Assembly: GCA_964344415.1 (NCBI GenBank)
Contig: CAYFMS010000002.1
Coordinates: forward strand, 192,593-256,592
Origin: an uncultured Gammaproteobacteria bacterium
GTDB lineage: Bacteria; Patescibacteriota; Patescibacteriia; UBA9934
Direction of reading: 5' to 3'
Length of the DNA: 64,000 nt
Under the pieces are notes generated by a model that worked only from the letters and a program-made list of their open reading frames with translations, was not told the DNA's origin and ran no database searches. Both the position numbers and the translations under genes were made by a program. This document shows positions 50,322 to 61,788 of the stretch, in pieces. Numbering within the stretch: the stretch's first letter is position 1; every line of letters starts with the position of its first letter.

Positions 50322-50376
50322 AATAAAATCTAGTAAATAGTAAACATAAAAACCAACCTTACGGTTGATTCTTTGC

Positions 50377-50542
50377 TGGCTCTGGGGGTGATATATAGCC
50401 TCGCTCTATACAAACCTTCGGTTTGACCGCTCGGCAGGATCCCACCCCAGCATCTGTTCCATGAATACCTAGAACATCTGCACAGCCTGACGGCTGTTAA
50501 GCCAAAAGAAAACAACCCTGACGGGTTGCATTCTTTTGGCTC
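50377..50542. repeat. 166-bp direct repeat DR1; begins with a 14-nt copy (tggctctgggggtg) of the tRNA-Asn 3' terminus
   Basis: 3 mismatches in 166 bp versus 56100-56265. Internally it holds a nested hairpin gccaaaagaa...(aaccc tgac gggtt)...ttcttttggc. Confidence 0.85.
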
Positions 50543-52966: not shown

Positions 52967-53320
52967 CTAGAAATCTTCTTTGAAGTCTGCTTGAATCGAG
53001 AGTTCCTCTCCCTTTTTTATATCTCTCAAAGCAACATCAGCATCTAGCTCGTAGTCCACGTATACATTCGGGTCTTCGTATCGATTTACGTGTCGTTCTG
53101 GGTCTGGGTAGTAATAAATGATTCCATATCTTTTGTGTGTAAAGTGTTTCTCAGACGCAGGAAGATTCTTGAACTCTTCTTCCGTGAGAGTCTTCAAATT
53201 GTACTGAATCACCACTTCACCCTTCTTGAAATCTCGAAACGCAAATACACCAAGCCCATCATTGAATTGACCAATGCCAGACTCCCTAATTTCAACATCT
53301 CCGAAAATTTGTTTATTCAT
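52967..53320 (-). CDS. SET-domain protein (small bacterial SET, putative lysine methyltransferase)
   Basis: GLGVFAFRDFKKGEVV (SET-N), HVNRYEDPNV (NHSCxPN-like) and EELSIQADFKE (post-SET-like ELTFDY). The start is set at internal MNKQIFGD, which avoids overlap with the upstream gene. Confidence 0.55.
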   Translation of the reverse strand: MNKQIFGDVEIRESGIGQFNDGLGVFAFRDFKKGEVVIQYNLKTLTEEEFKNLPASEKHFTHKRYGIIYYYPDPERHVNRYEDPNVYVDYELDADVALRDIKKGEELSIQADFKEDF

Positions 53321-53336
53321 AGTACTGGTTAGTATA

Positions 53337-54287
53337 TCAACTACTTGAGAGAGAAAAATCCTTGTACATAAGGTCACATAAACAATCATGAAGCCTATTC
53401 ATATTCTCAACATCCTCTCTGGTGAATGTATGGTTAGGAGAAAGTGATGCACCGTGAACAAGGCCCTTGTTATTTCTTAGATGATTCCATGCATGTACAT
53501 GGCTTAAATAATATCCAAATCCTTTTCCAAGACTCTTTAAAAACTCCTGCACCCTATCCTTTGTTACACCTTTGTTATTTATATTTCCGGGCGTCAACTT
53601 TCTTTTTAAAGCTTTTTTCTGTGAGTCAGACAAACCCAACTCCTCAATCTGTAAGACCGTATTTTCTATAATGCTATTCAACTTACTCCAATTAGCACTT
53701 TCTTTTCTTTTATCGACAATGGAGGTTTTTACACTTTCTGTTTTAGATAAATGCTCTATTAGAGCATACTCACTCATAAATCTAACATCAGCAATTGCAA
53801 GGGTATTGATTTGAAGCATTGGGAGTAGCATTTTTCTAAAAAAATGACTCTCTTTTAGTCGGGCTAGTCCGTGCTCAATGGTCGCTACAGGATGAGCGAA
53901 TAGATGTTTTCTATTTCTATTGATTTGACAACCTCCTCCTAGGTTGAAATTTTTTGGAATAGCAGAGAATGGAAAATCATTGTTATGAAATAAAATGGTC
54001 ACATTATCAGCCAGTAAATATGATAGTACGAGTGAGATTCTCCATAGTAAATCCTTATCTTCATCCTCTAATGTTACAGTCAGAACTAATGTGTTGTACC
54101 GAACAAGCTGCAGCTCAAGCTCTCCCTTAAAGATATTAAAGGTGAACTGCGTTCCGGTGTTAAGCACTTCTTTCTGCTTGCTTGGAATACTACCTAACTC
54201 ATATTTCATTTTCAGCAACTTACCAGTCTCCTCAAGATAAATCTGTCGCTCTCTGTGTAGATTGAACAAGTTGCGCACCTCGGGCAT
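53337..54287 (-). CDS. Hypothetical protein (316 aa) with C-terminal Rx6H (HEPN-like) motif; candidate Abi/HEPN-type protein
   Basis: C-terminal SHVHAWNHLRNNKGLVHGASL contains R-x6-H, as in HEPN nuclease motifs. No other family recognised. Third gene of the operon. Confidence 0.35.
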   Translation of the reverse strand: MPEVRNLFNLHRERQIYLEETGKLLKMKYELGSIPSKQKEVLNTGTQFTFNIFKGELELQLVRYNTLVLTVTLEDEDKDLLWRISLVLSYLLADNVTILFHNNDFPFSAIPKNFNLGGGCQINRNRKHLFAHPVATIEHGLARLKESHFFRKMLLPMLQINTLAIADVRFMSEYALIEHLSKTESVKTSIVDKRKESANWSKLNSIIENTVLQIEELGLSDSQKKALKRKLTPGNINNKGVTKDRVQEFLKSLGKGFGYYLSHVHAWNHLRNNKGLVHGASLSPNHTFTREDVENMNRLHDCLCDLMYKDFSLSSS

Positions 54288-55950: not shown

Positions 55951-56099
55951 GTTTATTGTCGCTTTTTTTGTAAAATAAAGTCATGGCACGACCTCCTAGA
56001 ATAGAATATAACGGAGCTCTCTATCATGCAATGTCGCGTGGACTGTCCTACCTCCTTCAAAGTAAAATAAAAACAATCCCTGATGGGATTATTTTTATT

Positions 56100-56265
56100 T
56101 GGCTCTGGGGGTGATATATAGCCTCGCTCTATACAAACCTTTGGTTTGACCGCTCGGCAGGATCCCACCCCAGCATCTGTTCCATAAATACCCAGAACAT
56201 CTGCACAGCCTGACGGCTGTTAAGCCAAAAGAAAACAACCCTGACGGGTTGCATTCTTTTGGCTC
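56100..56265. repeat. 166-bp direct repeat DR2, immediately abutting (6-nt overlap) the tRNA-Asn 3' end
   Basis: Near-identical to DR1. The layout is ...tggctctgggggtg-DR body-ttttggctc | tgggggtgggattcgaaccc (tRNA). Confidence 0.85.
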
Positions 56266-56616
56266 TGGGGGTGGGATTCGAACCCACGACCAATTGGTTA
56301 CACGTAATCCTATAGTTTCCTATAAGCATGGACTATATCATCATCCTTCTCAATGAGTGAGGATGCGAGGCGCTTCGAGTCTTGCGACCCTACTCCATAA
56401 AGGATAGTCTCTGAACCGGCCTTCGCCAAGGCTTCGTCCGACAGGTCTTCCTGCTCGGTCCTTGATGAAGGATTGGCTGCTGATTGCCATATTCTTTCGA
56501 ATGAAGGTTTCCAGCAATTCACCTCGTTTTCATTCCACTGTTTCCAGTGGAAGCTGCGTTAGGCGCTCGATTGAGCTGTGCCACAGCCAACTGCTCTGCC
56601 ACTGAGCTACCCCAGA
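56260..56616 (-). tRNA. tRNA-Asn(GUU) interrupted by a group I intron in the anticodon loop (exons 56584-56616 and 56260-56300)
   Basis: 5' exon TCTGGGGTAGCTCAGTGGCAGAGCAGTTGGCTGT. 3' exon TAACCAATTGGTCGTGGGTTCGAATCCCACCCCCAGAGCCA. The spliced product has a canonical cloverleaf with anticodon loop CUGUUAA and a T-arm GTGGG-TTCGAAT-CCCAC, with CCA encoded. It is close to bacterial tRNA-Asn sequences. Confidence 0.8.
56301..56582 (-). ncRNA. Group I self-splicing intron (282 nt) inserted between anticodon positions 35 and 36 of tRNA-Asn
   Basis: Conserved group I core elements are present. P-like GAAUUGCUGGAAA, Q-like AAUCAGCAGCC, R GUUCAGAGACUA, S AUAUAGUCC. A P2 hairpin has a GAAA tetraloop (CCACUG-GAAA-CAGUGG). 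A P9 hairpin has a GAAA tetraloop (CUUAUAG-GAAA-CUAUAGG). The intron ends in a G (omegaG). The 5' exon ends in U with a candidate IGS GCAGCU. Confidence 0.75.
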
Positions 56617-56858
56617 TTATTATCTCGTATTCGTTTTAGAAACTCTTTTCCGTAGCCCGATTTTAGGTATCTTTCCCTTGCTCGCGCCGAGGGTCTATCA
56701 GTTACCTGTTCGGTGTACAGCAGAGTCCATGGTCGGTAGGCTTTCGTAGAAGAAACCCTACCAGCGTTGTGCTCCGATATTCTACGTTCGATATTTCCTG
56801 AAAAGCCCACATAAATTCTACCATCATGTTGACTTGCAATTGCGTAAACGTGATACAT
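56607..56858 (-). CDS. GIY-YIG nuclease-domain protein (UPF0213/YhbQ-like, 83 aa)
   Basis: YHVYAIASQHDGRIYVGFSGNIERRISEHNAG...KAYRPWTLLYTEQ...ARARERYLKS matches the GIY-YIG (GIY...YVG...R...H...E) YhbQ-type pattern. Its last 10 nt overlap the 5' end of tRNA-Asn. Confidence 0.7.
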   Translation of the reverse strand: MYHVYAIASQHDGRIYVGFSGNIERRISEHNAGRVSSTKAYRPWTLLYTEQVTDRPSARARERYLKSGYGKEFLKRIRDNNLG

Positions 56859-56873
56859 ATTTTGTTAACTGCT

Positions 56874-56894
56874 CCCTGCCTGCCGGCAGGCAGG
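56874..56894. repeat. Perfect GC-rich palindrome ccctgcctgccggcaggcagg(g), copy 1
   Basis: Inverted repeat seen directly in sequence. A second, complete copy lies at 60183-60204. Confidence 0.7.
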
Positions 56895-56914
56895 TGCCAC
56901 TGAGCTACCCCAGA
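56895..56914 (-). repeat. Duplicated 20-nt fragment of the tRNA-Asn 5' end (tgccactgagctaccccaga)
   Basis: Identical to 56597-56616 (tRNA positions 1-20). It lies 280 bp upstream of the real tRNA start, on the far side of the GIY-YIG ORF. Confidence 0.7.
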
Positions 56915-60571: not shown

Positions 60572-61369
60572 TTATGAAAGAGGCATGGTGAGGCATTTGC
60601 ATGCGCCTCCGCCCTTGATAAATTCCGACATTTCAACTTGATGCACAGTATATCCCCTCTGCTCAAGCTCTTCTGTTATATCCTCAGCACCGGCAGGCAT
60701 CACGATGTCATTTCCGAGTACGAAACTATTGCAGGCAAACTTCAGCGCATCTTCATCCGAAACCTCGATCACCGTATCAAACTCTTCTTTTATCTTAGCA
60801 AGCGATTCAGACTCAATGGCTGCAGGGTAACAAATAGCAAGATCTTCCGTGATAGGACAAAAACAGGTGTCCAGATGATAAAAACGATCATCCGTCAGCC
60901 CTATAGATATCAACTCAACCTTACTCACTTCATTCAAGTATTTTCCAATTTCATTATGCGCTTCACGATCTGTTCGAAAACCATACCCGCAAAACAATCG
61001 ATTTCCCGACCATAAAGAATCACCATGCCCTTCAAATTTCAAATCTGGTGAAAGCTCCCTAATTTCATAGCCAGCACCACGAAACCAGTCGATGATATGT
61101 GGCCTTTCACCCTGGCGTTCAGGAAATGCAAAGTTAGATGGAATAAATACATTACCAAGCTTCACACCAACGTCGACATAAACCATATCTGGCTGATCCG
61201 GCTGAGGATGCATAAGCTCGATCTTCATTCCAAGCCCTTTATATACCTCCGTGAGGTCCTTCCATTGCTGTGATTTATCTCCCGATGCTTTGTGATGAAT
61301 ATCCATCCACGGATTAATCGAATACTCAATATCAAAATAATCCGGAGGGCACATTAATACTTTTGTCAT
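60572..61369 (-). CDS. Amidinotransferase-superfamily enzyme (DDAH/arginine-deiminase-like)
   Basis: N-terminal VLMCPPDYFDI and the C-terminal catalytic-Cys motif GGGACKCLT are typical of DDAH and arginine-deiminase-type hydrolases. The start is set at internal MTKVLMCPP (ATGA overlap with the NUDIX gene). Confidence 0.6.
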   Translation of the reverse strand: MTKVLMCPPDYFDIEYSINPWMDIHHKASGDKSQQWKDLTEVYKGLGMKIELMHPQPDQPDMVYVDVGVKLGNVFIPSNFAFPERQGERPHIIDWFRGAGYEIRELSPDLKFEGHGDSLWSGNRLFCGYGFRTDREAHNEIGKYLNEVSKVELISIGLTDDRFYHLDTCFCPITEDLAICYPAAIESESLAKIKEEFDTVIEVSDEDALKFACNSFVLGNDIVMPAGAEDITEELEQRGYTVHQVEMSEFIKGGGACKCLTMPLS

Positions 61370-61788
61370 AGATTTTGCGAGTAGAATACACCGTTGAGAT
61401 AGCATTGTATAGCCATTCTGCTTGCATCAAAATGAGGCTCAGGCAATTCTCGTGGATTCACCCATTCCCATGACTCACATTTTTCTGGTTCGCAAACAAT
61501 TGGGGCTTCGCTCGGCGCATCCGCTACAAGCACAATGGAGATTGAGTGAAAGCCTTCATCCTCGTATGTTTCAAGGTTATTCGTGCAGGCAATAACTTTT
61601 GGATTTACAGATAATCCCGTTTCTTCCATAATTTCGCGTGCAGCTCCTTCTTCGAAACTCTCACCCATTTCAAGACCTCCTCCCGGAATTGAAAAATAAG
61701 GAGCATGACTCCCCTTCCTTTTTCCAACAAGTATTTTTCCCTCCTGATTCACTAAAATCACTCCAAGTCCAACAACGGGTTTACTCAT
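61366..61788 (-). CDS. NUDIX hydrolase
   Basis: Nudix box GGGLEMGESFEEGAAREIMEETGL; 140 aa. Confidence 0.8.
   Translation of the reverse strand: MSKPVVGLGVILVNQEGKILVGKRKGSHAPYFSIPGGGLEMGESFEEGAAREIMEETGLSVNPKVIACTNNLETYEDEGFHSISIVLVADAPSEAPIVCEPEKCESWEWVNPRELPEPHFDASRMAIQCYLNGVFYSQNL

Follow-up and report, generated by a model that had tools for sequence, protein, structure and literature searches.

A 282-nucleotide group I intron without an open reading frame very probably interrupts a tRNA-Asn(GUU) gene of an uncultured bacterium

Background

The classical group I introns of bacterial tRNA genes belong to subgroup IC3 and are found in Anabaena/cyanobacterial tRNA-Leu(UAA), Azoarcus tRNA-Ile(CAU), Agrobacterium tRNA-Arg(CCU) and cyanobacterial tRNA-fMet. 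A preprint in which about 80,000 genomes were scanned (Williams 2020, bioRxiv 10.1101/2020.01.27.920355) raised the tRNA/site classes from four (Leu.3Ug, Arg.5Ug, fMet.2Ug and Ile2.5Ug, all IC3) to 21, among them 'Asn.4Ug' with the seed Pam37.Asn.4Ug. Here we analyze 64,000 nucleotides (nt) of contig CAYFMS010000002.1 (positions 192,593 to 256,592), from an uncultured Gammaproteobacteria bacterium; this whole stretch is called the window. On its minus strand lies a tRNA-Asn(GUU) gene. We conclude with high confidence that a 282-nt group I ribozyme intron without an open reading frame (ORF) splits it between U35 and U36.

Group I introns make tRNAs hard to detect (PMC8172020; PMC8450103) and tRNAscan-SE was not designed for them (PMC8450103). 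In complete genomes of the candidate phyla radiation (CPR), intron-bearing tRNAs were needed for a full tRNA set (PMC8172020). The literature searched contained no peer-reviewed description of tRNA-Asn group I introns, and gave only mitochondrial and chloroplast genome papers. [quoted passage not shown]

The split tRNA-Asn gene

The split gene extends from 56616 to 56260, exactly the interval proposed in a first-pass annotation made from the sequence alone, where the strand (minus) was left unstated. Read on the minus strand, it consists of TCTGGGGTAGCTCAGTGGCAGAGCAGTTGGCTGT, 282 nt and TAACCAATTGGTCGTGGGTTCGAATCCCACCCCCAGAGCCA. The joined exons form a canonical 75-nt cloverleaf including an encoded CCA and are identified as tRNA-Asn(gtt) by ARAGORN, in agreement with the host and the 282-nt spacer given by that annotation. 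The spliced tRNA has a 7-bp acceptor stem, a 4-bp D stem, an anticodon stem GUUGG/CCAAU with the loop CUGUUAA, a 5-nt variable loop, the T arm GUGGG-UUCGAAU-CCCAC and discriminator G. The parts of the locus are as follows.

56616..56583, minus strand, 34 nt: tRNA-Asn 5' exon (ARAGORN on joined exons), with the acceptor 5' strand, D arm, anticodon stem 5' strand and C32 U33 G34 U35; U-1 is 56583
56582..56301, minus strand, 282 nt: group I intron (Rfam RF00028, covariation, minimum free energy (MFE) fold)
56300..56260, minus strand, 41 nt: tRNA-Asn 3' exon (ARAGORN on joined exons; U1-A72/G73), with U36 A37 A38, anticodon stem 3' strand, variable loop, T arm, acceptor 3' strand, G73 and CCA
56235..56252, minus strand: intrinsic-terminator-like hairpin and T-run, directly after the CCA end

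When the Rfam model Intron_gpI (RF00028) was applied, as the first-pass annotation had proposed, it matched 56592..56309 on the minus strand over its whole length (positions 1-253 of 253). The match has 83.9 bits, where the gathering score is 50, and an E-value of 7e-20. The group I intron call is thus far beyond chance. ARAGORN in default mode does not see the split gene. No other tRNA-Asn was found in the window with ARAGORN in default and intron modes, and no rRNA was found there in the Rfam search.

The locus has the features of the Asn.4Ug class: tRNA-Asn(GUU), the site CUGU/UAA, U-1, a terminal G (omegaG) and U1-A72/G73. The Pam37.Asn.4Ug seed agrees with the window in tRNA, in the site after the fourth anticodon-loop nucleotide, in U-1, in omegaG and in the presence of P7.1/P7.2; its P3/P4/P6 segments read GAAUUCAAGGAAA...CAACCCUGAUCC, and those of the window GAAUUGCUGGAAA...CAAUCAGCAGCC. 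The intron thus adds one more case to Asn.4Ug, a class already listed in that source. The site had been called unusual, which holds relative to the four classical cases; it does not hold against the preprint's catalogue or against the at least 33 further examples reported below. Global identity to four published seeds was also calculated, and was dropped as non-discriminating because each seed, including IC3 Azoarcus, gave 78-85% of aligned columns.

Intron architecture and covariation

Relatives were sought with the core pattern AATTGCTGGAAA N10-40 AATCAGCAGCC (P3/P4...P4'/P6) in one genome per species. At least 119 matching stretches were obtained, and 62 of the matches listed lie in split tRNA genes, including at least 33 further tRNA-Asn genes split at CUGU/UAA in species-level genomes. 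A MAFFT alignment, made by sequence only, of 17 ORF-less homologues served as the covariation set. The elements of the window intron are given below; nt 1 of the intron is window position 56582.

56558..56582, minus strand: P1 loop, with a small hairpin GCUC-AAUC-GAGC; site of the HNH ORF in relatives
56552..56557, minus strand: P1 guide sequence (nt 26-31), paired with exon positions -6..-1, plus the pair G1-C25 (covariation)
56534..56551, minus strand: P2 (nt 32-38/43-49), GAAA loop; 7 of 7 pairs with compensatory changes
56520..56526, minus strand: P3 5' strand CGAGGUG (nt 57-63), paired with 56372..56366
56478..56516, minus strand: P4-P5-P4' (P4 nt 67-72/100-105; P5 nt 76-96, GAAA cap)
56415..56477, minus strand: P6 (GCC/GGU, nt 106-108/166-168) with an expanded multi-hairpin insert
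56405..56411, minus strand: P7 5' strand G-A-GACUA with bulged A (nt 172, 174-178); guanosine-binding helix
56377..56404, minus strand: hairpins P7.1 (nt 179-181/187-189) and P7.2 (nt 193-197/202-206, GCAA loop); two hairpins here in 30/30 family members
56366..56372, minus strand: P3 3' strand CGCCUCG (nt 211-217; covariation)
56342..56365, minus strand: P8 hairpin (nt 218-223/236-241); four pairs with compensatory changes
56330..56335, minus strand: P7 3' strand UAGUCC (nt 248-253), paired with the P7 5' strand
56302..56329, minus strand: P9.0 (AUG/CGU, nt 254-256/279-281) around P9 (nt 257-263/268-274, GAAA loop; 6 pairs with compensatory changes)
56301, minus strand: omegaG (nt 282), placed by P9.0

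All core motifs that the first-pass annotation had pointed out are present, namely GAAUUGCUGGAAA (P3/P4), AAUCAGCAGCC (P4'/P6), GUUCAGAGACUA (P7) and AUAUAGUCC (P7'). The GNRA-capped P2 and P9 and the terminal omegaG were found as well, as GAAA caps and a final G. The P1-P9 fold proposed there for checking was recovered when the single sequence was folded: the MFE structure (-100.6 kcal/mol, z = -3.7 against shuffles) reproduces the same helices except the P7 pseudoknot, which is missing because MFE folding cannot represent pseudoknots.

In the 17-sequence alignment RNAalifold recovers P1-P6, P7.1, P8 and P9 as well as the anticodon stem formed by the exons, and 28/52 pairs show compensatory changes. 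P3 has three such pairs (e.g. CG in 11 and UA in 6). When the full structure including the pseudoknot and P9.0 was scored, 93.3% of the cells were paired versus 34-44% with the partners slid by 1-3 columns, 27 pairs were changed on both sides, and none of 500 shuffles reached as high; the covariation score was 0.356 versus at most 0.109 for the slid versions. P4, P6 and P7 are uninformative in this respect because they are invariant (P7 in all 17 aligned sequences), partly since the search pattern fixed P4 and P6. Changes in P7.1 are confined to one side, and P7.2 varies freely in sequence yet always folds.

The architecture is that of subgroup IA, and we assign the intron no finer than 'IA-type'. 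The assignment follows from the presence of P7.1/P7.2 between P7 and P3' in the window and in all 30 family members in which the anchors could be placed. The Azoarcus, Anabaena-type (Leu) and Arg seeds of IC3 have about 3 nt between P7 and P3', whereas the window intron has 32 nt, including the 28-nt P7.1/P7.2 insert. The core 'UUCAGAGACUA / GAUAUAGUCC' is also typical of IA, in contrast to the IC3-type core GUAGAGACUA with a GCCGAGCC-type P6. With the classical IC3 tRNA introns the window intron shares a P1 made from anticodon-arm nucleotides and a small size (about 200-300 nt), but it differs in the tRNA and the loop position. With the IA introns of phages and of transfer-messenger RNA (tmRNA) (T4 td/nrdB type; tmRNA T-loop) it shares P7.1/P7.2 and the core AATTGCTGGAAA...AATCAGCAGCC, but those reside in protein-coding genes or tmRNA, whereas its own host is a cellular tRNA-Asn.

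Predicted splicing and the state of the window copy

Mapped onto this anatomy, the established group I mechanism would run as follows. In the precursor, the guide GCAGCU would pair with exon G30-U35 to form P1, with the U35·G wobble marking the 5' splice site, and an exogenous guanosine bound in P7 would attack after U35. P9.0 would then dock the terminal G56301 in the P7 pocket, and the freed 3'-OH of U35 would attack after G56301. Ligation of CUGU and UAA would restore the anticodon loop CUGUUAA, and RNase P processing would give the mature tRNA-Asn, in which CCA is already encoded.

A relative used for comparison was L037, the metagenome-assembled genome (MAG) of an uncultured gammaproteobacterium. 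Its tRNA is identical to the window tRNA at 73/75 positions, and the flanking genes are not shared. The two differences constitute one compensatory 3-70 pair, so the tRNA appears to be under continued selection. From the guide sequence onward the L037 intron is about 84% identical to that of the window. The P6 expansion of the window intron is absent in L037 and present in another relative (L117); since L037 lacks it, the two introns are related but that of the window did not arise from the other by simple deletion.

Several points weigh against a functional intron of the proposed kind. P10 amounts to no more than 2 bp, a U·U mismatch lies in P5, and there is an extra hairpin in the P1 loop, where the first 21 intron nt may fold on their own and compete with the G1-C25 extension. 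Splicing competence is argued here from intact conserved positions and helices, and the IA assignment from architecture and resemblance to published seeds. The tRNA-Asn search covered 64 kb of a 768-kb contig, and a second, uninterrupted copy could lie elsewhere.

These points bear on the possibility that the intron is a decayed, non-splicing relic and this tRNA-Asn copy a pseudogene, with an intact copy elsewhere. The loss of the homing endonuclease gene, the P6 expansion relative to L037, the P5 mismatch and a view limited to 64 kb of the genome would be consistent with it. However, every family-invariant core position is intact and all helices are paired in the window intron, the cloverleaf is perfect, the acceptor-stem change relative to L037 is compensatory, a terminator follows the gene, the window contains no other tRNA-Asn, and complete CPR genomes needed intron-bearing tRNAs for a full set (PMC8172020). 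We thus consider the relic improbable, and regard the window copy as an immobile, probably splicing-competent passenger.

Choice of the splice junction

Two junctions are formally possible from the sequence, each following a U and each giving an intron that ends in G. The first (CUGU/...GUG/UAA) gives tRNA-Asn. The second (CU/GUGG...ACG/UGUAA), two nt earlier, is the one reported by ARAGORN in intron mode and gives tRNA-Thr(UGU) with a 282-nt intron after U33. As the sequence alone is ambiguous, comparative evidence was needed, and it settles the junction between U35 and U36, where the first-pass annotation had placed it.

The P1 guide GCAGCU (56557..56552) pairs with exon GGCUGU (56588..56583) in 6 contiguous pairs in the window. 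In this register U35 forms a U·G wobble with intron nt 26, and U33 forms a Watson-Crick pair with A. All 17 sequences share the CUGU/GCAG core of P1 with its U·G unchanged, and the adjoining pair shows covariation. For the Thr register, the best guide-sequence match in the window is 2 pairs. At the other end, AUG after P7' pairs with CGU before G56301 to form P9.0 (3/3 pairs in the window), and its middle pair co-varies across homologues (C-G in 9, U-A in 7; columns 343/368). The omegaG is therefore 56301 and not 56303.

Among the 33 same-site homologues, 14 have no G at omega-2 and can only use the Asn junction; the remaining 19 share the formal ambiguity. In addition, U1-A72 and G73 are present in 34/34 family tRNAs. 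By the identity rules of E. coli these are Asn-type, whereas tRNA-Thr has G1-C72 and A/U73. A tRNA-Thr(UGU) host, which has the ARAGORN call, the U at -1, the G at the intron 3' end and the ambiguity of 19/33 homologues on its side, is hence hardly credible in view of the P1 wobble, P9.0, the 14 Asn-only homologues and U1-A72/G73, and tRNA-Asn is preferred.

Distribution of related introns

Hosts of the 33 split tRNA-Asn genes are mainly CPR/Patescibacteria (Saccharibacteria, Paceibacterota/Parcubacteria, Magasanik-, Morani- and Peregrinibacteria). The others are three MAGs of uncultured gammaproteobacteria, one of Bdellovibrionales and one that bears the label Planctomycetia. The Asn.4Ug class, already catalogued in the preprint, is also common in uncultured bacteria. 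At least 120 metagenome contigs carry an intron-less tRNA-Asn with an identical anticodon arm, and these are potential homing targets. No pairs of intron presence and absence at species level were found among the 120 intron-less loci listed; the most similar tRNA there has 4 differing positions, and the flanks have nothing in common.

The same core variant also splits other tRNAs, elsewhere in the loop: Leu(CAA) after loop nt 1, Met/fMet (CUCAU/AA), Phe (CU/GAAGA) and Asp (CUGU/CAC). These non-Asn loci are L005, L016, L017, L027, L031, L035, L043, L051, L053-L055, L062, L067-L069, L074, L075, L081, L093, L095, L100, L103, L108, L115 and L119, and their hosts include cultured strains of Vibrio, Photobacterium, Alteromonas, Rheinheimera and Aliiglaciecola. 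Many of them are mislabelled by ARAGORN in intron mode as Arg(CCG), Gln(CUG) or Leu(CAG); in the mislabelled loci the sole U-1/omegaG junction gives the loop CUCAU/AA with the anticodon CAU.

The core was likewise found in at least 120 viral contigs, with none of the matches listed inside a split tRNA. When blastn was run against phage genomes, only core matches of 45-65 nt were obtained, mostly to DNA-polymerase introns, and they gave no host-gene information. One further match to this bacterial/phage-type core, not in a split tRNA, is in L018 (CAYFXU010000003.1), which carries the label Candidatus Bathyarchaeia archaeon. The contig may be bacterial and mis-binned, or the group I intron may be truly archaeal; Williams suspected mis-binning for a similar case (bioRxiv 10.1101/2020.01.27.920355).

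The HNH gene of long relatives and the ORF in the window intron

A 70-aa ORF (56522..56310) runs through P3-P9 of the window intron. It has no Pfam match, and the frames that start at this GTG in homologues are 6-86 codons long, with P7/P7' in all three phases. As the frame is not kept in homologues and matches no Pfam family, we consider the ORF spurious, as the first-pass annotation had expected. The further statement that the intron is too short for an ORF fits the window copy but not the family, in which 13 relatives of 524-609 nt have an HNH ORF site.

These 13 introns are long because the P1 loop holds a gene of about 105 aa (intron nt ~30-360). The ORF is intact in 11/13 (L007, L020, L039, L047, L061, L063, L084, L101, L106, L107 and L111), is frameshifted in L037, and in L050 no ORF of 50 aa or more starts with ATG. 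With its CxxC...HH...CxxCH motifs, the protein matches Pfam PF01844 with 28.1 bits (L007 copy) and the phage HNH family phrog_2255 with an E-value of 3.7e-29 (L039 copy), a likeness to phage introns. The frame crosses the guide sequence (...ACG CAG CUU... = T-Q-L) and stops in P2, or in P3/P4 in a few of the copies, so that the same nucleotides are predicted to serve both as HNH coding sequence and as ribozyme helices. Several long introns have TATAAT/TATACT-like motifs just past the 5' splice site.

The window intron encodes no homing endonuclease, keeps the ACGCAGCUUCC segment and has a 25-nt loop at the gene's place. Since the endonuclease ORF is found in relatives and not in the window intron, the family appears mobile and the window copy not autonomously so. 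The family would spread by homing through the HNH enzyme whose gene lies in the P1 loop. The Synechocystis tRNA-fMet intron (I-Ssp6803I) also has its own homing endonuclease gene, as do the long Asn.4Ug relatives but not the window copy. I-Ssp6803I is a PD-(D/E)XK enzyme, whereas the Asn.4Ug ORF encodes an HNH protein.

A GIY-YIG cassette at the tRNA 5' end

Directly upstream of tRNA-Asn, an 83-aa ORF (56858..56607, minus strand) contains a GIY-YIG domain (PF01541, E-value 7.9e-17), and its stop codon falls within tRNA nt 8-10. The ORF is flanked by two copies of tRNA nt 1-20, one at 56914..56895 and the other at 56616..56597 (the real tRNA). After the upstream copy come the perfect palindrome CCTGCCTGCCGGCAGGCAGG of 20 nt and then GAGCAGTT, which matches tRNA nt 21-28.

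56597-56914, minus strand: GIY-YIG cassette (PF01541 ORF and tRNA 5' copies)

The same layout is present in L094 (7344-7719), beside an intron-bearing tRNA-Asn. Homologous GIY-YIG ORFs lie just upstream of 7/120 of the intron-less tRNA-Asn genes listed and of one tRNA-Ser (L243, L270, L275, L280, L295, L307, L350 and L344). The homologous cassettes stand on metagenome contigs unrelated to one another; in most of them an upstream tRNA 5' fragment is followed by a hairpin, and there is no second complete tRNA. When candidate 'empty sites' were searched, the flank BLAST matches were mostly short repeated elements. The unit looks like a mobile cassette targeting the 5' half of tRNA genes, and it is independent of the intron because its homologues stand beside intron-less tRNA-Asn and tRNA-Ser genes. 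No account of a GIY-YIG cassette targeting tRNA 5' ends was found in the literature searched; the nearest described analogue is T4 SegB (PMC2330249).

That the 83-aa protein is the homing endonuclease of the intron acting in trans, the two forming one mobile unit, is suggested by the adjacency here and in L094 and by a weak NCBIfam match to 'group I intron endonuclease' (17.9 bits), but we regard it as very unlikely, as this match is far under the cut-off of 56, 31/33 of the other Asn.4Ug loci lack a GIY-YIG gene beside them, homologues occur at 7 intron-less tRNA-Asn loci and one tRNA-Ser, the cassette has its own boundaries (the tRNA 5'-end repeats), and an HNH gene belongs to the intron family itself.

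Repeats at the tRNA 3' end and neighbouring genes

The terminal 14-mer of the tRNA, CACCCCCAGAGCCA, occurs three times on the same strand versus 0.01 expected.

50377-50390: terminal 14-mer copy
56100-56113: terminal 14-mer copy, same strand
56260-56273: terminal 14-mer copy, same strand

A direct repeat of 180 nt with 95% identity (56086-56265 and 50363-50542) starts inside the tRNA-Asn 3' end. The two copies enclose 5.7 kb with a G+C content up to 0.54 versus about 0.40 around it. The ORFs of this segment encode DUF218, SET-domain and metallo-beta-lactamase-fold proteins; another ORF, of 396 aa and without a family match, lies in the stretch of raised G+C. No integrase was found in the segment with Pfam and NCBIfam. 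Judged from these repeats and the composition, it may be a decayed island integrated at the tRNA.

Taken together with the intron and the GIY-YIG cassette, the 5.7-kb segment could make the tRNA-Asn gene a nested hotspot for three independent selfish elements. We put this forward only tentatively, as a reading that is on balance doubtful. Under such a hotspot, the GIY-YIG cassette may have inserted in the tRNA 5' half, regenerating the 5' end and leaving the 20-nt fragment and the palindrome upstream.

Two genes near the tRNA, both on the minus strand, encode a SET-domain protein (52967-53389) and a DDAH_eukar-type protein (60572-61405), DDAH_eukar being a eukaryote-like dimethylarginine dimethylaminohydrolase. 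Together with a G+C content of about 41%, these two proteins hint at a host-associated lifestyle.

Conclusions

The working principles of group I introns are unchanged by these findings, and the part most deserving separate attention is the GIY-YIG cassette. The main value lies in annotation: ARAGORN misses the gene in default mode and mis-assigns it to Thr in intron mode. Because finders miss or mislabel the gene, the genome would be reported without a tRNA-Asn or with an extra tRNA-Thr(UGU). The comparative set also provides a rule for mapping such junctions, which combines the U·G wobble of P1 with a co-varying P9.0. Beyond what the accessible part of the preprint gives, Asn.4Ug has an IA-type architecture and extends across CPR, gammaproteobacterial, Bdellovibrionales and Planctomycetia-labelled genomes, and in its mobile form the 3' end of the HNH gene would double as guide sequence and P2.

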